Of a DNA stretch of 64,000 nt, positions 3,155 to 62,680 are shown piece after piece. Source of the DNA: Patescibacteria group bacterium (GTDB lineage: Bacteria > Patescibacteriota > Patescibacteriia > Magasanikbacterales > JBBTQS01); contig JBBTQS010000003.1 of the NCBI GenBank assembly GCA_038065555.1, positions 26,266 to 90,265 on the forward strand, read 5' to 3'. Positions within the stretch are counted from its first letter, which is position 1; each line of letters starts with the position of its first letter. Made by a program: the position numbers and the translations under genes. The notes below the pieces were generated by a model that ran no database searches, had not been told where the DNA came from, and was given only the letters and a program-made list of their open reading frames with translations.

Positions 3155-3415
3155 ATGCCTCCACGCCTACGCAAAAATGATAACGCCCGCATCGAACAGT
3201 ACCAGCAAAAGGTAAAACGGTTCGAGCGACGACATCACGTCTTTGCCGCGCTCCTTATCGGCAGCGCGATCGTACTTTTTTGGCGCGGCGTGTGGAACCT
3301 CGCTGATATTTATCTCTTCCCCAATCAGGACGTTGCCAGCGCTGTAGTTTGTATTGTCGTTGGATTCATCATCCTCTACCTACGCGACTTCGATCTCAAG
3401 GAATTCCTCAAATAA
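3155..3415 (+). CDS. small membrane protein, unknown function
   Basis: 86 aa: a basic N-terminus followed by two hydrophobic helices (HHVFAALLIGSAIVLFW... VVCIVVGFIILYL). Confidence 0.45.
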   Translation: MPPRLRKNDNARIEQYQQKVKRFERRHHVFAALLIGSAIVLFWRGVWNLADIYLFPNQDVASAVVCIVVGFIILYLRDFDLKEFLK

Positions 3416-10784: not shown

Positions 10785-10813
10785 AGCATACTTCGTGGGA
10801 CTTTTTTTGTCAA
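10785..10813 (-). promoter_or_regulatory. sigma70-type promoter (TTGACA-17-TATGCT) for TrmB paralog 2, apparently leaderless
   Basis: On the minus strand: -35 TTGACA (10808-10813), 17-nt spacer, -10 TATGCT (10785-10790). The ATG at 10776 lies about 8 nt downstream of the -10. Confidence 0.4.
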
Positions 10814-16372: not shown

Positions 16373-16583
16373 ATATTTGGATTATGAATACATTTGTAGT
16401 ATGCACGGTATAGGATGATCGAGCAAGGGGCGGATCCTATTTTGCAGTTTCAATTCTTGATCGTGTTGCACTGTCCTTGACATTTCCTTATTTTTGTGCT
16501 ATATTACTACGTTTTCTAGTATTGGCCCATTTGCCATGGTGGCGTATGGGTTAAGAAAGAAATGCAGCTCGAGAGAGGCACAC

Positions 16584-24935: not shown

Positions 24936-25190
24936 CAAAAACAAACGCCGACTGCTTGCGCATCGGCGTGTGTAGAGCGTTTTGTCGTGTGAGCATCCGA
25001 CCACGTAACCACCACGAAACATGGTACGAATGCTCGCGCGACAATCCCTACGAATTATCACGTCTCCCCGTTCTTTTCGATCTCTCAAGGCACTACTTTA
25101 GCACATCTACACTTTTTGTCAAGTAACAAGTTGACAAAATACGCCCATGCAACGGCTCGTATTTTTCATCTGTTTTTGCGCAAAACATCC

Positions 25191-33064: not shown

Positions 33065-33772
33065 ATGTACGACTACGCTATTATCATTCCCTGCTTCAAC
33101 GAGGCCCAGGGCATTCAGAATACACACGCGCAACTGTGTGAGTTCTTCGCGCAACCAGAATGGCGCGGTTGTAGCGTAGCGTTGGTGTACGTTAATGACG
33201 GGAGTACAGACACCACAGATGCCACGCTCACCGAACTTTCTGGAGCGAGTGAGCACGCAGCAGTCGCTGTGTTCACACACAGCTATCCGGTCAACCGCGG
33301 CAAAGGCGCTGCGATTCGCGAAGGAGTACAACAAGTGGATGCGTCTCACTACGCGTTCATAGATGCGGATCTCGCATTCCCACTCAGTACATTTGCGCAG
33401 ATGTATGCACTGCGCGACAGTGCAGACTTGATCGCAGGTCAGCGTACTGAGTTACGTTCTGCTCGCCGCATGCGCTGGGCGATTTCTCGCGTAATCCAAT
33501 CACTCACCTCGTGGCTTCTCCATCTCCCCGTGCGTGACACACAGTGCGGCATCAAACAATTCTCTCGCCGCGTTGTCACCACACTCTTCCCACAACTTAC
33601 TGAGGAACGATTTGCGTTCGACGTAGAACTCATTGCACGCGTGCGACAACAGGAATGGCCCATTGCAACACTTCCCGTTCCATTTCGGTACCACTCACAC
33701 TCGTCTGTGCGGTTTGTGGACGGTTTGCGGTTCCTGGTTTCGCTCTTACGCCTTTCGCGCCATTCCCATTGA
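33065..33772 (+). CDS. family-2 glycosyltransferase (DPM1/GtrB-like)
   Basis: 'YAIIIPCFNEAQGI', 'VYVNDGSTD' and 'FIDADL' (DxD) motifs. Confidence 0.75.
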   Translation: MYDYAIIIPCFNEAQGIQNTHAQLCEFFAQPEWRGCSVALVYVNDGSTDTTDATLTELSGASEHAAVAVFTHSYPVNRGKGAAIREGVQQVDASHYAFIDADLAFPLSTFAQMYALRDSADLIAGQRTELRSARRMRWAISRVIQSLTSWLLHLPVRDTQCGIKQFSRRVVTTLFPQLTEERFAFDVELIARVRQQEWPIATLPVPFRYHSHSSVRFVDGLRFLVSLLRLSRHSH

Positions 33773-33823
33773 CAAACAACACAAAAGTGCTACACTCCGG
33801 ACGCCATTATGGAGGCAAATCAG

Positions 33824-41014: not shown

Positions 41015-44000
41015 TTAGCGTGAACGATCTTCATCGTATGCCCCCATCTCCTCCTCTTCGGTGAGTGCGGTATACGTGTCGCCATCGCGCTTGAGCAATT
41101 CAACATCGAGGCACAGACCCTTCAATTCACGTGTAAGTACGTGGAAGGATTCTGGGATGTTGATACGCGTGATGGATTCGCCCTTAATAATTGATTCATA
41201 CGCCTTGCTGCGTCCTGGAACATCGTCTGACTTGATCGTGAGGATTTCCTGCAAGGTATTTGCAGCACCGTACGCTTCGAGCGCCCATACTTCCATTTCT
41301 CCGAAACGCTGACCACCGAACTGCGCCTTACCACCAAGTGGCTGCTGCGATACGAGTGAGTATGGTCCGATAGAACGCTGGTGAATCTTGTCTTCAACCA
41401 TGTGGTTGAGCTTGAGCACGTAGGTGTAACCAACCGTCGTCTTGTGGTCAAACGGTTCACCAGTACGGCCGTCGAGCAACTGCGCCTGTCCATCTACTGG
41501 AAGTCCTGCGCTAGCAAGCAACTCCTTGATCTGTTCTTCCGTAAGTCCATTGAGTGGTGGCGTTGCTACGCGGTGACCGTGTGCATTTGCTGCGAGACCT
41601 GCGTGGTTCTCGAGAATCTGACCGAGGTTCATACGCGAGATAACACCCAGTGGCGAAAGAATGATGTCCACTGGCGTACCGTCTGGCAAAAATGGCATGT
41701 CCTCTACTGGAACAACGCGTGAGATAACACCCTTGTTACCGTGACGACCTGCAACCTTGTCACCTACCTGCACCTTGCGCATGTCTGCAACAGTGACTTG
41801 GAGCTGCTTGATAACACCTGGCTGCAACTTGTCGCCGTCGTCTGCGCTGAACGTCTTGATCTCAATAACTTTGCCGTGCTCACCGTGCTCGAGATACTTC
41901 GAAGAGTCGCGCACGTCGCGTGCCTTCTCACCGAAGATTGCGCGGAGCAATTTTTCTTCTGCTGAGAGTTCGGTTTCGCCCTTTGGTGTGATCTTACCAA
42001 CAAGGATGTCACCAGACTTCACCTCAGCACCGATGCGAACTACACCTTCGGAATCGAGGTTGTGCAACTTTTCTTCCGAAACGTTTGGAATGTCGGATGT
42101 GACCATTTCAGGTCCGAGCTTGGTTTCGCGAACATCAACCATGTAGTCCTCAATGTGGATCGAGGTAAATCGGTCGTTGTGTACGAGACGCTCAGAAATG
42201 ATGACAGCATCTTCATAGTTGTATCCATCCCATACCATGTATGCGACGAGTACGTTCTGTCCGAGTGCGAGTTCACCGTTCTCTGTCGAAGGTCCGTCTA
42301 CAAGCGCGTCACCAGCCTTCACCTTTTGACCAGGGCGCACAATTGGGCGCTGGTTGATCGCAGTGGAGTGGTTGCTGCGCAAATATTTGTTGAGCGAGAT
42401 TTTCTTTTCGCCGCCCTTCTTGTACTTCATGGTTACTTGCGTACCGTCTACCGACGCAACTTCACCATCTTCGGTCGCAAAGAGTACGTGGCCGGAATAT
42501 CGTGCCGCAGTCTTCTCCACACCTGTTCCAACAAATGGAGCGTCTGGAGTGATACATGGTACTGCCTGACGTTGCATGTTCGTTCCCATGAGCGCACGTG
42601 TAGCGTCATCGTGCTCGAGGAATGGAATCATCGAAGTAGCAATCGAGATAATCTGGTTGCTCGAGACATCCATGTAGTCGATGTTGGTGACGTCTTCGAA
42701 TCCTGGCTCACCGTGGCGGCGAACTGGAGCTTTTTCGTCCACGAAGAATCCCTTCTCATCAACAGGTGTCGTTGCAATGGTTGTAACCGACTTCTCTTCT
42801 TGGAACGCGTTGAGATACACGATCTCATCCGTCACGCGTGCACGGCCCTTCTCCTGTACTACCTTGCGGTATGGAGTCTCGATAAATCCGTAGTCGTTCA
42901 CAATTGCGTAGGACGCAAGGTGACCTACGAGACCAATGTTCGGTCCTTCAGGAGTTGCAATAGGACAAATACGTCCGTAGTGCGTAGGATGCACGTCACG
43001 AACATCGAATCCTGCGCGATCGCGCGAAAGTCCACCAGGTCCAAGAGCCGAGAGACGACGCTTGTGCTCCAACTCAGCAAGTGGGTTGGTCTGGTCCATG
43101 AACTGCGAGAGCTGCGAGCTCATGAAGAATTCGCGAACGGCACCAATCACTGGGCGCGCGTTGATGAGCTTGCTCGGCGTGAGTCCTTCGATCTCATACG
43201 TGCTCATGCGATCCTTCACGATGCGCTCCATGCGAGAGAGACCGATGCGGAAACGATTCTGAACCAATTCTCCAATCGCGCGGATACGGCGGTTGCCAAG
43301 GTGGTCAATATCGTCTGCCTCTTCCTGAGAGACGTTGAGACGGATCACTTCGCGAATAATGCGGAGGATGTCTTCCTTGGTGAGAATACGTGTGGTGCGT
43401 GCTGCCTTGCCCTCGAGATCTGCCTCTACTGTTGGCATGGAAAAACGCTCATTCATCTTGTAGCGACCTACACGACCCAAGTCGTATCGATCGAAGTTGA
43501 AGAACATCGCGTGGATGAGCGAGCGAGCGTTGTCTACGGTTGCAAGATCACCTGGGCGAATACGCTTGTACACTTCCTGGAGACCTTCGTCTTCGTTGCT
43601 TGCAGAGTCCTTCTTGAGGGTTGCTTCTACGTAGTCAATCTGTGGGTGCGTGTTGACATCCTTCAAGAGCTGACGGATTTCCTCAGATTCAGAGTAGCCA
43701 AACGAACGCAACAATGTTGTTGCTGCTACTTTGCGCTTGCGATCTACCTTGACCCAGAGCACGTTGTTGCTATCTGTCTCGATTTCGATCCAGGCACCGC
43801 GGTTCGGGATAATCTTTGCACCGTAGAACTTGCGGCCACGAACGTTCTCCGAAGTGAAGAACGCTCCTGGAGAACGAATAAGCTGCGAAACAATGACACG
43901 CTCGATACCATTCACAATGAATGTACCGCGGTCTGTCATGATAGGTACGTCGCCAAGATATACTTCCTGTACCTTCTCGTCCTTTGTGCGATTGTTCACG

Positions 44001-44293
44001 AGACGTGTCTTGACGCGAAGTGGTGCCTCGAACGTAATGTTTTTCTTGCGGCACTGCATTTCGTCGAACTTCGGCTCATCGAGGTAGTAATCCTCGAACG
44101 AAAGCGCCAAATCACGACCAGTGAAGTCCTTGATCGGGGAAATTTCCTCGAACAATTCGCGGATCCCCTTGTCGAAGAACCACTTGTACGACGTGTTTTG
44201 GATCTGAATAAGATCCGGAGTCTCCATAGCTGGGAGAATTGAAGTGAAATACTTCCGTTCTGCCGCCATGTTGCGGTTGCGCTTGTACTGCAT
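41015..44293 (-). CDS. rpoB: DNA-directed RNA polymerase subunit beta
   Basis: About 1092 aa; start taken at ATG 44291-44293 (MQYKRNRN..., which aligns with Bacillus RpoB N-terminus QYGRHRQRRSY). The track ORF begins 2 codons earlier at TTG. Confidence 0.95.
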
Positions 44294-44518
44294 AGGCAAG
44301 GGAATAAATACAAAAAGTCACCCGAAGACTAATCGGGATCTTTCTAAAATTCTCGCAAATTTTGGACAAATTTCTGCAAGGTTGACATGGAGATTTCCTT
44401 GCACGCAGAGGGTCCAGATGGTCCTCCGCGAGTCCGCACTACTATACGGCACCAATCTGTCTATGTCAAATGAACGAATGACACAGTTTATCCACAGGTA
44501 GAGATGCCTAGCGGGTAC

Positions 44519-44547
44519 TTGACAAACTTGAGGGTGGGTGGTATAGT
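44519..44547 (+). promoter_or_regulatory. near-consensus sigma70 promoter P1: TTGACA-17-(TGg)TATAGT
   Basis: -35 at 44519-44524 and extended -10 at 44539-44547, on the strand opposite to rpoB, pointing toward ftsK 550 bp away. Confidence 0.45.
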
Positions 44548-44850
44548 CCTTCGTTCATTTCATCCCATAGGGAAAGCTGCGGGGAGAGGGGCGCACGGAC
44601 CGCGAAACGGAACGTGTGTAGCAACTGACGTAGGAATACGAGGCTCCGGCTTTGGATCACCTGCTGAGGGCGCTGATGCGACAGGGAGTAGCTCTGCTAT
44701 TCACCATCGCTTCCTCTCCGCACTTTTCCCGATGGACAAATCACCACACCTGTGCCGCTAGGGCGCAGGGCACCTTCGGGCATCTGTCTTGGTCTTTACA
44801 TCCTCCATTCAATGCCCTACTGCCTTGCGCTCTGGCGGTGTTTTGTTTTC

Positions 44851-44878
44851 TTGACAGCGTATTCCTATGCGCTACACT
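44851..44878 (+). promoter_or_regulatory. sigma70-like promoter P2: TTGACA-16-TACACT
   Basis: -35 at 44851-44856 and -10 at 44873-44878, preceded by a U-rich tract (GGTGTTTTGTTTTC) that could end a P1 transcript. Confidence 0.35.
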
Positions 44879-45077
44879 AGACGTGTGACACTGCTCCTTC
44901 GACATCTTCTTTTTTGGGCTGCGATTCTCTATACACTGCATCACGTAAGAGCAGAAAGTACAACTCTCTCCTCGCCACAGACCCTCACGGGTATGTGGTC
45001 ACTTTCTCCTTTTGTGCGATACAAACTAGTGTGGTAGCGACTCGCAGCCCAAAGAAGGAGATTTTTTTATTGTTTTT

Positions 45078-45086
45078 TGCTATACT
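45078..45086 (+). promoter_or_regulatory. extended -10 element TGCTATACT proximal to ftsK (P3)
   Basis: AT-rich upstream tract; ATG of ftsK at 45105, giving a leader of about 10 nt with no SD. Confidence 0.3.
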
Positions 45087-45104
45087 AGGCGTGCATTTTC
45101 GCCT

Positions 45105-47480
45105 ATGGCACATCGTCGATCTTCTTCCGGATGGAACATCACGCTCAATCCGGAAATTAAGCGAGGTATTCTCGCGGTTTTTCTCTTTTTGATTGCTATC
45201 CTTGCAGCGCTGAGCTTCTTCGGCCGCGCTGGCATGCTCGGCACCTTCGTTGATTCATTCTTCTCACTCTTCTTCGGCATTGCGAAATACGTCATGCCGA
45301 TATTGCTCGTGGTGTGGGCAGTACTCATCGAGCGCGAGGACGCGAACGGATATCGCGCGACACACATTATCGGAGTTGCGCTCATGACACTTTCGCTCTC
45401 TGGGCTGATTCACTTGTTCCTCGCAGATCCTGACATGCTCGCAGCCGCACTTCGTGGTGAGGGCGGTGGATTGGTCGGACTCGTGCTCAGCTATCCGCTC
45501 ATGCGCGCATTTGATTTTTGGGTCTCACTCATCGTACTGATTATTTTGCCGCTTGTTTCGTTGTTATTCCTTTTCAATACGACACTCTCCGAGATTGCAC
45601 ATTTTTTCTACGGCGTTTTCAGATTCTTCACCGCACCATTTCGCTTTTTCGGTTCGGCGTTGCAACCTGCGAAGGTTGAGCGCGTGCGCGTAATCGGCGC
45701 GTACGAAGGAGACGAAGTACCAAATGCTCCAGAATTCCAGAACAAAAAACTCGCTGACGCAGCGATCAAGAAGGCTGCTGCCGAGGAGACAGAAGATGAG
45801 GACGAGGATGAAGAAGAGGAAGAGGTCGACGAGCCAGTTCGCATGGCTCCAGCTACAGCGAAGACTGGCACGTTGCGCGCCAATCCATATCCAGTAGTCA
45901 GCACCAAGGGACTCCCCCCACTATCCATTCTCACTACTAATTCGAGCAAGCCAACTGCAGGCGACATCAAGAAAAACGCGCAAGCAATCAAGGATACGCT
46001 CGCACAATTTGGCGTTGATGTGGAGCTCGGAGATGTTCGTGTAGGCCCGACAATTACACAGTACGCTGTCAAACCAATGCGTGGTATCAAACTCTCCCGC
46101 ATTACCGCACTCTCCAACGACTTAGCACTCGAACTCGCTGCACACCCAATTCGTATCGAAGCGCCAATTCCTGGCGAATCGTATGTTGGTATCGAGGTTC
46201 CTAACCAACGCATTGCGATGGTTACACTGAAGGAGCTTTTTGAATCTGACGCATACAAGTTGCGTGAGAACAACATGATGGTTGCACTGGGCAAAGACGT
46301 AGGAGGCAACGTGTGGTTCGCAGATCTCACGAAGATGCCCCACATGCTCGTTGCAGGTGCTACAGGTTCGGGAAAAACCGTCTGTATCAACTCAATCATT
46401 CTCAGTCTCATCTATCAGAACACTCCTGAGACATTGCGATTCATTTTCGTGGATCCAAAGCGCGTTGAGCTCACGTTGTACAACGGCATTCCTCACTTGC
46501 TGACGCCTGTTATCACGGACGTGAAGAAGACAATCAACGCACTGCGCTGGGCCATTGCCGAAATGGAACGACGATTTGATGTACTCGCTGCTGCTCGCAA
46601 GCGCGACATCGGCTCGTACAATGCTGATGCGAAGGAAAAGCTTCCATACATTGTCTTCGTGATCGACGAGCTTGCTGATCTCATGACAACGTCACCAAAA
46701 GAAGTGGAAGCAGGCATTGTCCGTCTCGCACAAATGGCACGCGCCGTCGGTATCCACCTCATTCTCGCAACACAGCGACCAAGTGTCGACGTTATCACAG
46801 GGCTCATCAAAGCCAACATTCCAGGACGCGTTGCATTCTCCGTAGCGTCACTGGTTGATTCGCGCACGATCCTCGATATGTCTGGCGCAGAGAAATTGCT
46901 CGGTCGTGGTGACATGTTGTTCCTCAGCCCCAACCTCGGCAAACCAAAGCGTCTCCAAGGTGCCTACATCAGTGACAACGAACTCAAAGCAGTTGCAAAC
47001 TACATCAAGGAAGACGAACCACCACAATACGACCTGAGCATCGCAGAAAAAGGTCCAAGCAGCAGCAACGGATCAACAATTTTTGGTGCACCTGATAATG
47101 ATCGCGATCCACTCTTCGACGAAGCAAGAGAGATCGTGGTGCGCGAGGGCAAGGCTTCGGCTTCCCTTCTCCAGCGCAGGCTCAAACTCGGATATGCGCG
47201 CGCAGCACGCGTACTCGATGAACTCCAAGATGCCAACATCATTGGTCCAGGCGACGGAGCAAAACCGCGTGAAATTTTGATCAGTGCGAAGGAACTTGCT
47301 ACAATGGACGCTACTGATGCTTCACTTGATTCGATTCCGACGTCTGGCATGCACACACCACTTGCACAAGAGCCAGATGCATTCGAAGCAATGGACGACG
47401 AAGTTGAGGAAGACGACGCATCAGACCCAGACGACGAACCACCGTATGACGACGCTTCAAAAGAAGCAACTTCCGCGTGA
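45105..47480 (+). CDS. ftsK: DNA translocase FtsK/SpoIIIE
   Basis: N-terminal 4-5 TM helices; acidic linker (EDEDEDEEEEEVDE); motor domain with Walker A 'GATGSGKTV'; C-terminal gamma (winged-helix) domain 'LQRRLKLGYARAARVLDEL'. Confidence 0.9.
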   Translation: MAHRRSSSGWNITLNPEIKRGILAVFLFLIAILAALSFFGRAGMLGTFVDSFFSLFFGIAKYVMPILLVVWAVLIEREDANGYRATHIIGVALMTLSLSGLIHLFLADPDMLAAALRGEGGGLVGLVLSYPLMRAFDFWVSLIVLIILPLVSLLFLFNTTLSEIAHFFYGVFRFFTAPFRFFGSALQPAKVERVRVIGAYEGDEVPNAPEFQNKKLADAAIKKAAAEETEDEDEDEEEEEVDEPVRMAPATAKTGTLRANPYPVVSTKGLPPLSILTTNSSKPTAGDIKKNAQAIKDTLAQFGVDVELGDVRVGPTITQYAVKPMRGIKLSRITALSNDLALELAAHPIRIEAPIPGESYVGIEVPNQRIAMVTLKELFESDAYKLRENNMMVALGKDVGGNVWFADLTKMPHMLVAGATGSGKTVCINSIILSLIYQNTPETLRFIFVDPKRVELTLYNGIPHLLTPVITDVKKTINALRWAIAEMERRFDVLAAARKRDIGSYNADAKEKLPYIVFVIDELADLMTTSPKEVEAGIVRLAQMARAVGIHLILATQRPSVDVITGLIKANIPGRVAFSVASLVDSRTILDMSGAEKLLGRGDMLFLSPNLGKPKRLQGAYISDNELKAVANYIKEDEPPQYDLSIAEKGPSSSNGSTIFGAPDNDRDPLFDEAREIVVREGKASASLLQRRLKLGYARAARVLDELQDANIIGPGDGAKPREILISAKELATMDATDASLDSIPTSGMHTPLAQEPDAFEAMDDEVEEDDASDPDDEPPYDDASKEATSA

Positions 47481-58165: not shown

Positions 58166-58194
58166 TTGACACATCTCCCCATTTTCTCTACACT
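58166..58194 (+). promoter_or_regulatory. sigma70 promoter for tig: TTGACA-17-TACACT
   Basis: -35 at 58166-58171 and -10 at 58189-58194; tig ATG at 58222. Confidence 0.5.
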
Positions 58195-62636: not shown

Positions 62637-62680
62637 TTTTTGTCAGAATCATTGACAAAAATAGTCCAATGTCGTATACT
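62637..62680 (+). promoter_or_regulatory. promoter with operator-like palindrome for TrmB paralog 5
   Basis: Perfect IR TTTTTGTCA-gaatcat-TGACAAAAA (62637-62661) overlapping -35 TTGACA (62652-62657). 17-nt spacer, then -10 TATACT (62675-62680). ATG at 62689, so effectively leaderless. Confidence 0.5.

Follow-up and report, generated by a model that had tools for sequence, protein, structure and literature searches.

The divergent spacer between rpoB and ftsK (positions 44294-45104) in a 64-kb stretch of DNA, hereafter the window, from a groundwater member of the Patescibacteria resembling the Magasanikbacteria is predicted to carry two tandem genes for structured small RNAs, designated RNA1 and RNA2. 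The existence of the two RNA genes is considered highly probable and, with good confidence, they are read as two independent units, each bounded by its own promoter and terminator, that point toward ftsK. Any specific mechanism for either RNA is held with far lower confidence. Each unit has its own conserved predicted promoter and an intrinsic terminator, neither has a conserved open reading frame (ORF), and both folds show compensatory changes, on one strand, beyond those of shuffled controls and of controls in which the pairing partners were slid.

Homologous loci were fetched by FtsK identity, and in all six relatives obtained in this way (FtsK identity 98%, 90%, 90%, 67%, 62% and 65%) rpoB and ftsK are divergent and separated by a spacer of 0.8-1.3 kb. 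The closest relatives, loci L006, L007 and L008, are those with an FtsK that is 90-98% identical. Alignment across related genomes, a check that the initial annotation of the spacer had proposed, revealed covariation for both folds.

Promoters in the rpoB-ftsK spacer

Four predicted promoters were located in the spacer. P1 and P2 had been named in the initial annotation, and both a reading of the sequence and a promoter scan found its coordinates for them to be exact. It did not include the divergent rpoB promoter, and its account of P2 was correct as to the promoter and the + strand but incomplete, since P2 is predicted to drive a second structured RNA with its own terminator.

44519-44547, + strand: P1, predicted promoter of RNA1, TTGACA-17-TGgTATAGT with an extended −10, 11/12 matches
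44851-44878, + strand: P2, predicted promoter of RNA2, TTGACA-16-TACACT, 10/12 matches
44441-44469, − strand: predicted rpoB promoter, TTGACA-17-TATAGT, divergent from P1, 11/12 matches
45078-45086, + strand: P3, predicted extended −10 promoter of ftsK, TGCTATACT, with a predicted ~12-nt leader ahead of the ATG (45105) and no Shine-Dalgarno sequence

The spacer region contains 3 promoter-like sites, compared with 1.0 +/- 1.0 in shuffled sequences. Only 11 sites with at least 10 of 12 matches occur on both strands of the window, and 3 of these fall within this 440-bp stretch. Because most of the remaining sites are located directly upstream of ORFs, the TTGACA/TATAAT-type motif appears to be a real promoter signature in this organism. 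P1 and the rpoB promoter are arranged back to back, with 49 bp separating their −35 elements.

In the alignment of L006, L007 and L008, the hexamers and the TG of P1 are kept and the spacer between them is variable. Likewise, the −35 element and TAnAnT of P2 are kept in the closest relatives, with variation in the spacer and in the first bases after P2, and the bodies downstream of both promoters are ~90% identical. Conserved hexamers, free spacers and conserved bodies are what would be seen if real promoters drove functional RNAs, and promoter activity is predicted on this basis. TTGACA-17-TGnTATAnT is also present upstream of the RNA1 region in the more distant L009, L011, L013 and L019, and equivalent promoters (TTGACA-17-TATAAA and TAAAAT) precede RNA2 in L044 and L046. 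The rpoB promoter is conserved as TTGACAT and TATAsT across all relatives, including L044. P3 is conserved after RNA2 as TGnTATAMT, the −10 being TTTTGCTATACT or TATAAT in L007, L008, L011, L013, L019 and L044, and the equivalent position in L009 and L046 is TGGTATACT.

The other near-consensus TTGACA-17-TAnAnT promoters of the window, on the + strand at 16477-16505, 33769-33796, 58166-58194 and 62652-62680, and on the − strand at 10813..10785 and 25122..25095, are only a few to ~25 bases upstream of ORF starts. Promoters this near to start codons, together with a lack of Shine-Dalgarno enrichment (described below), suggest that leaderless or short-leader mRNAs may be common in this organism.

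A 15-nt inverted repeat, I3 (44468-44482 / 44546-44560, 93% complementary), flanks P1. It is not conserved in L006 and is probably fortuitous.

RNA1

RNA1 is probably a discrete transcript of ~295 nt and an independent unit, a statement that carries the same confidence as the reading of two RNA genes as a whole, with a predicted transcription start at ~44553-44557. An RNA of ~290 nt running from P1 (about 44555-44848) had been proposed in the initial annotation, and this proposal is now strengthened by a + strand fold, compensatory changes, a conserved promoter, and a hairpin with a U tract at the expected end. The U-rich tract that it had placed just before P2 is UUUUGUUUU, which follows an 88-nt hairpin.

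44559-44741, + strand: RNA1 core, a 183-nt four-way junction, matched at these coordinates by covariance model R2
44566-44590 / 44711-44734, + strand: closing helix (P1 stem), 22 bp of purine/pyrimidine pairs with a G-rich 5′ strand and a CU-rich 3′ strand
44591-44619, + strand: arm A
44620-44674, + strand: arm B, with the tip GGC-UCCG-GCU at 44642-44651
44678-44710, + strand: arm C, with the conserved internal loop GA-CA-GG/CC-A-UC
44753-44849, + strand: 3′ extension forming a predicted intrinsic terminator, an 88-nt hairpin (44753-44840) with a 19-bp base followed by UUUUGUUUU at 44841-44849

Compared with shuffled sequences, the folding z-score of 44548-44860 is -5.3 for the + strand and -1.5 for the − strand. 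The consensus fold of an alignment of 8 sequences comprises 46 pairs, and double changes occur in 31 of these. With the consensus partners 92.3% of cells are paired, compared with 39-53% when partners are slid by 1-3 columns, and sliding reduces the pairs with double changes from 31 to 5-11; none of 500 shuffles reached the observed value. When folded singly, all 8 sequences give the same closing stem and three arms, with junctions that have almost no unpaired nucleotides. Sequence is conserved in the closing helix, on both strands, at the tip of arm B (GGC, a UNCG-like loop, and GCU) and in the internal loop of arm C (GA-NA-GG / CC-A-UC). The core is recognisable in L009, L011, L013 and L019, and model R2 finds one copy per locus.

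The U-tract of the terminator ends one base short of the P2 −35 element. The terminator hairpin is nearly invariant in L006-L008, and its apical part, ACAUCCUCCAUUC, includes an anti-Shine-Dalgarno-like CCUCC. Different long hairpins that share the stem CAGARCAAGA/UCUUGYUCUG replace the 88-nt hairpin in L009, L011 and L019. The terminator hairpin preceding RNA2 overlaps or wraps the P2 −10 element in L009, L011, L013 and L019. The 5′ half of this hairpin would be missing from an RNA that starts at P2, and termination at this site is therefore not expected.

L013 (2366-2527, +; 53 aa) and L019 (2921-3094, −; 57 aa) each have a small, very basic ORF in the interval from the P1-type promoter to RNA1. 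The two products are 45% identical, and a counterpart was sought in the window and none was found. The spacer from the P1-type promoter to the small ORF is also enlarged in L019 (~3205-3385, −) and includes extra long hairpins. A strong terminator-like hairpin with a U-run directly follows the P1-type promoter in this locus and may represent a further small RNA unit.

RNA2

The region downstream of P2 (44880-45110) folds with z = -7.3 into a rod-like structure, RNA2. Transcription is predicted to start at ~44885, which would give a transcript of ~185 nt.

44904-45062, + strand: RNA2, a rod-like imperfect hairpin of ~160 nt and ~51 bp
44960-44973, + strand: conserved single-stranded 5′ bulge of 14 nt, ACAACUCUCUCCUC
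44974-44998, + strand: short apical hairpin
45063-45079, + strand: U-tract of the predicted intrinsic terminator, U6 A UUG U6 after the closing stem, with GGAGAUUUUUU conserved in the close clade

The bulge is the most conserved feature of RNA2. It is 13-16 nt long, A-rich/CUCUCUCCUC, with an A-rich part followed by CUCUCUC(CUC), and it is located 7-12 bp below the apical loop, opposite 0-2 nt. The consensus fold of 11 distinct sequences, including L044 and L046, has 51 pairs with double changes in 37. Paired cells amount to 90.7%, falling to 40-49% in the slid controls, where double-change pairs number 10-15, and none of 500 shuffles reached the value seen with the true partners.

The types of non-Watson-Crick cell that are tolerated point to the + strand. 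G·U cells outnumber A·C cells by 49 to 16 in RNA1 and by 77 to 18 in RNA2, and the covariance models score far higher on the + strand (R2 for RNA1, 174 versus 25 bits; R1 for RNA2, 177 versus 49 bits). For these reasons, selection on both folds appears to act at the level of RNA on the + strand and not on a DNA palindrome.

RNA2 is found just upstream of ftsK in every locus that carries it. Model R1 detects it in the more distant L044 (E = 6e-8) and L046 (E = 2e-6), and in L046 it abuts ftsK even though four ORFs lie between rpoB and RNA2. A separate terminator hairpin is present 3′ of the rod in both L044 and L046 which, together with the promoter of its own, suggests that the RNA2 rod is more than a terminator.

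Gene context and distribution

The spacer is flanked by two genes.

41015-44293, − strand: rpoB, with the ATG at 44293 and a mechanical ORF reaching a TTG at 44299; six RNA polymerase beta (Rpb2) domains by Pfam
45105-47480, + strand: ftsK, with the Pfam domains FtsK_4TM, FtsK_alpha, FtsK_SpoIIIE and FtsK_gamma

Gene callers give an RpoB product of 1092 aa on the identical contig L001. Identical copies of the FtsK protein occur on groundwater metagenome contigs, identical contigs being present in samples from Hainich, and its named homologues belong to Candidatus Magasanikbacteria and to the Patescibacteria group. rpoB is also near ftsK in the more distant L044 and L046. A different arrangement is found in L043, L045 and L047, where a pilin-like gene is upstream of ftsK and the spacer is <100 bp.

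RNA1 is limited to a narrow clade and RNA2 reaches more distant relatives (L044 and L046). RNA1 was not found by model R2 in L044, L046 or L047, and a model search with filters off in L043, L045, L047, L044 and L046 returned only short terminator-type hairpins. No second copy of RNA1 or RNA2 was found in the 64-kb window or in the other loci. Pattern scans used an RNA2 signature consisting of GGCTGCG, AACTCTCTCCTC and GCAGCC. Among species-representative genomes this gave 4 matches, all in the same clade and one of them new (L019). A relaxed scan of metagenomes gave 23 matches, of which one was real (L020, identical to L008) and 22 were chance matches in GC-rich coding DNA.

The records of L016, L017, L018 and L019 are labelled as 'uncultured Gammaproteobacteria bacterium'. 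Their FtsK relatives point to Patescibacteria/Magasanikbacteria and the labels are probably wrong. In one relative (L013, 7217-8063; L015, 6077-6923), an RVT_1 reverse transcriptase gene is located beside a bAvd gene, ~2 kb downstream from recA. Together they make up the gene pair of a diversity-generating retroelement, which the lineage of the window lacks at the corresponding position.

Coding potential and known RNA families

A protein-coding spacer was considered and rejected. The initial annotation had seen no credible ORF here, and the ORFs of 42-85 aa that can be drawn in the region lose the frame or the start, or gain stops, in L007 and L008, where FtsK is 90% identical.

The Rfam scan suggested in the initial annotation was run with Rfam 15, and nothing was found in the region either at gathering thresholds (whole window) or at E ≤ 10 (44200-45200). 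Across six homologous loci at E ≤ 5, only tRNAs and weak chance matches elsewhere were returned. The 6S RNA model RF00013 and its clan had no match in the window, in 44200-45200 or in the six homologous loci. ARAGORN reported a tRNA-Gly as its sole result in the window and no transfer-messenger RNA (tmRNA). Rfam and ARAGORN are thus in line with the earlier failure to recognise signatures of RNase P RNA, signal recognition particle (SRP) RNA or tmRNA by eye. Literature on noncoding RNAs in the Patescibacteria, or candidate phyla radiation (CPR), yielded no relevant description.

In general character, RNA1 resembles orphan structured RNAs such as raiA, ROOL, OLE and HEARO, in that it is a multi-helix, covariation-supported and ORF-free RNA that emerged from intergenic comparison. 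However, it matches none of them, is smaller (183-nt core), and is limited to a few Patescibacteria metagenome-assembled genomes (MAGs). Gram-positive bacteria have base-pairing small RNAs with exposed C- or CU-rich seeds, for example RsaE/RoxS and the loops of RNAIII. RNA2 is similar to these in its predicted promoter and intrinsic terminator, and in presenting an unpaired pyrimidine-rich motif, suited to purine-rich RNA, on a stable scaffold. It differs in being much longer and rod-like, with the motif in a bulge and not in a hairpin loop, and in an organism where there is little sign of Shine-Dalgarno use (among crudely called starts) and no enrichment of complementary sites.

Alternative explanations

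The alternative that survives best, though an unlikely one, is that ftsK has a long cis-regulatory leader of several parts that takes up the whole + strand region, with transcripts from P1, P2 or both reading through regulated terminators in the manner of attenuation or a riboswitch. RNA2 is immediately upstream of ftsK in every locus, L046 included, both terminators could be conditional, and RNA1 is of aptamer-like size with a closing helix just before its terminator. However, a leader of this kind would have no intervening promoter, and P2 is located between RNA1 and RNA2, and P3 between RNA2 and ftsK. Each unit has a conserved strong promoter of its own, and the conserved extended −10 that follows the RNA2 terminator and precedes the ftsK ATG makes a long ftsK 5′ untranslated region unlikely. 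The overlap of the RNA1 terminator with P2 in L009, L011 and L013 also fits separate units. In addition, ftsK of typical Magasanikbacteria (L043, L045 and L047) has a spacer of <100 bp and no such RNA, and the RNA1 junctions offer hardly any conserved, unpaired nucleotides from which a ligand pocket could be built.

It is distinctly improbable that RNA1 or RNA2 is the lineage counterpart of an RNA polymerase-binding RNA, 6S RNA (ssrS; RF00013) or Ms1, although this would explain a near-consensus promoter placed back to back with the rpoBC promoter, P1 being divergent from it. 6S RNA of E. coli is 184 nt long. The sizes fit (183 nt for the RNA1 core and ~185 nt for RNA2), both have long closing helices formed by their 5′ and 3′ ends, and RNA2 is rod-like with a conserved single-stranded stretch and is presumably abundant, given its strong predicted promoter. 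A canonical 6S RNA is also missing from the 64-kb window, the extent of the Rfam scan on this point. On the other hand, no 6S match was obtained at E ≤ 10 in the 1-kb search or in the six homologous loci, and neither RNA has the two-sided central bubble with extended helices on both sides that typifies 6S RNA. The loop of RNA2 is one-sided (14 versus 0-2 nt), is 7-12 bp from the apex and would be flanked by a helix too short to mimic upstream promoter DNA, while arms A and C of RNA1 belong to a covariation-supported four-way junction and not to an open bubble.

A strongly diverged RNase P RNA, SRP RNA or tmRNA is very improbable. Both RNAs are highly conserved, structured and, judging by their promoters, apparently strongly expressed between essential genes, and the RNA2 rod superficially resembles bacterial 4.5S/SRP RNA, in that it is a long hairpin whose internal loop, near the apex, is asymmetric and larger on the 5′ side. 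However, neither Rfam at E ≤ 10 nor ARAGORN gave a match. At only 183 nt the RNA1 core falls short of the size of RNase P RNA, it has no conserved strands of the P4 type, and L009, L011, L013 and L019 do not conserve the GGGAAAG near its 5′ end. RNA2 has apical loops of UUUU, UUU, GCA and UCAC in place of a GNRA tetraloop, lacks the symmetric loop and the sequences of SRP domain IV, and carries A-rich/CU-repeat sequence in its 14-nt bulge. L044 and L046 lack RNA1, and neither RNA is present at the typical Magasanikbacteria loci examined, which is unlike a universal RNA at a fixed locus.

Least credible of all are DNA palindromes, whether a cruciform or a repeat of the type of a miniature inverted-repeat transposable element (MITE), or chance hairpins of the spacer: RNA2 is a ~160-bp imperfect inverted repeat, similar in size and shape to MITEs such as ERIC or Correia elements, but it is present as a single copy in the window and in each locus and not as dispersed copies, occupies an orthologous position in relatives with an FtsK only ~60-70% identical, retains pairing through compensatory changes with the one-strand excess of G·U over A·C (77 to 18), and has a single-stranded bulge as its most conserved part.

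Possible functions

With two independent RNA units as the favoured reading, both RNAs would be stable, well expressed and trans-acting, and ftsK would be transcribed from its own extended −10 promoter 3′ of the RNA2 terminator. RNA2 may act via its exposed CU-rich bulge, either by pairing with purine-rich RNA or by binding a protein. RNA1 could be a scaffold that binds protein or RNA. Its perfect junctions, combined with helix tips and loops conserved in sequence, give it the look of a protein-binding scaffold.

The RNA2 bulge finds its best complement in the closing helix of RNA1, on the G-rich 5′ strand, suggesting that the two RNAs may work together. In each of the 6 lineages tested the predicted pairing is 10-12 bp long with an energy of -18 to -24 kcal/mol, a level that ≤0.9% of random genomic segments of equal length match. 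The sequence of the bulge is nearly identical to the 3′ strand of the same helix. A two-RNA switch can be imagined, in which the CU bulge of RNA2 invades or pre-empts the closing helix of RNA1 and refolds the four-way junction, and RNA1 may then be a lineage-specific housekeeping ribonucleoprotein RNA, co-regulated with rpoBC via the back-to-back promoters. This scheme is speculative and on present evidence rather unlikely. We know of no described tandem-encoded, trans-acting pair in which one RNA mimics a helix strand of the other.

A role of the CU bulge as an anti-Shine-Dalgarno mimic was considered and rejected. The 62 crudely called starts bind the bulge, and a probe of the 16S 3′ end, no better than the coding background. 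This lack of enrichment at start regions, with many promoters only a few bases from start codons, leaves such a role unsupported.

Several observations weigh against two independent, trans-acting RNAs or limit what can be concluded about them. About 8 distinct sequences of RNA1 and 11 of RNA2 come from a narrow, sparsely sampled clade, and some of the covariation counts thus reflect shared ancestry. The starts, ends and abundance of both RNAs are all predictions from the DNA sequence. The position of RNA2, always beside ftsK even where other genes separate it from rpoB (L046), fits a cis role as well. Sites complementary to the CU bulge number 9 in the window against 5.0 +/- 2.3 expected, which is not significant, and Shine-Dalgarno-type enrichment is absent from the crudely called gene starts. 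As for the partnership of the two RNAs, the site in RNA1 is already taken up by a strong helix within the molecule, the sequences involved have low complexity, and a CU-rich probe of any kind would prefer whichever tract is richest in purines. An RNA1-RNA2 interaction is for these reasons put forward as a hypothesis.

The rpoB leader

The left part of the spacer, on the − strand, is occupied by the rpoB promoter and a conserved rpoB leader. In this respect the initial annotation, sound for the + strand, was incomplete.

44294-44436, − strand: rpoB 5′ leader, conserved, ~140 nt, defined by alignment and consensus fold
within the leader, − strand: conserved helix CGCGGA/UCUGCG, which adjoins a second helix
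within the leader, − strand: nearly invariant hairpin UGCAAGG...CCUUGCA, with CAUG in the loop
44337..44321, − strand: terminator-like hairpin CCCGAU..UCGGG with a U-run, just before the ATG, found by the scan and including covarying pairs

Conservation of the leader reaches as far as L044, and Rfam gave no match to it. Its sequence and predicted fold suggest a cis-regulatory leader of the attenuator type for rpoBC. The rplKAJL-rpoBC operon of E. coli has an attenuator upstream of rpoB, and in both cases a transcribed leader has a terminator-like hairpin with a U-run shortly before rpoB. However, rpoB of the window is served by its own predicted promoter, its leader of ~140 nt contains two conserved helices, and the likeness noted is one of layout.

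Implications

The Patescibacteria have genomes of ~1 Mb, few regulators and almost no experimental genetics, and the complete genome of one relative (OZ246400.1) is 931 kb. RNA1 and RNA2 would be new families within a familiar class, that of structured small RNAs transcribed independently, and a handful of MAGs are known to carry them to date. Both are covariation-supported, fairly large and apparently strongly expressed, are located between two essential genes, and have no match in Rfam 15. The narrow distribution, in few MAGs, limits their general importance unless a wider search of CPR genomes extends the range. If confirmed, the finding would add two RNA families, one of which, RNA1, has a compact four-way junction, a type of fold that usually serves as a scaffold for proteins, and would provide a concrete entry to RNA-based regulation in the Patescibacteria that could be tested in groundwater metatranscriptomes.

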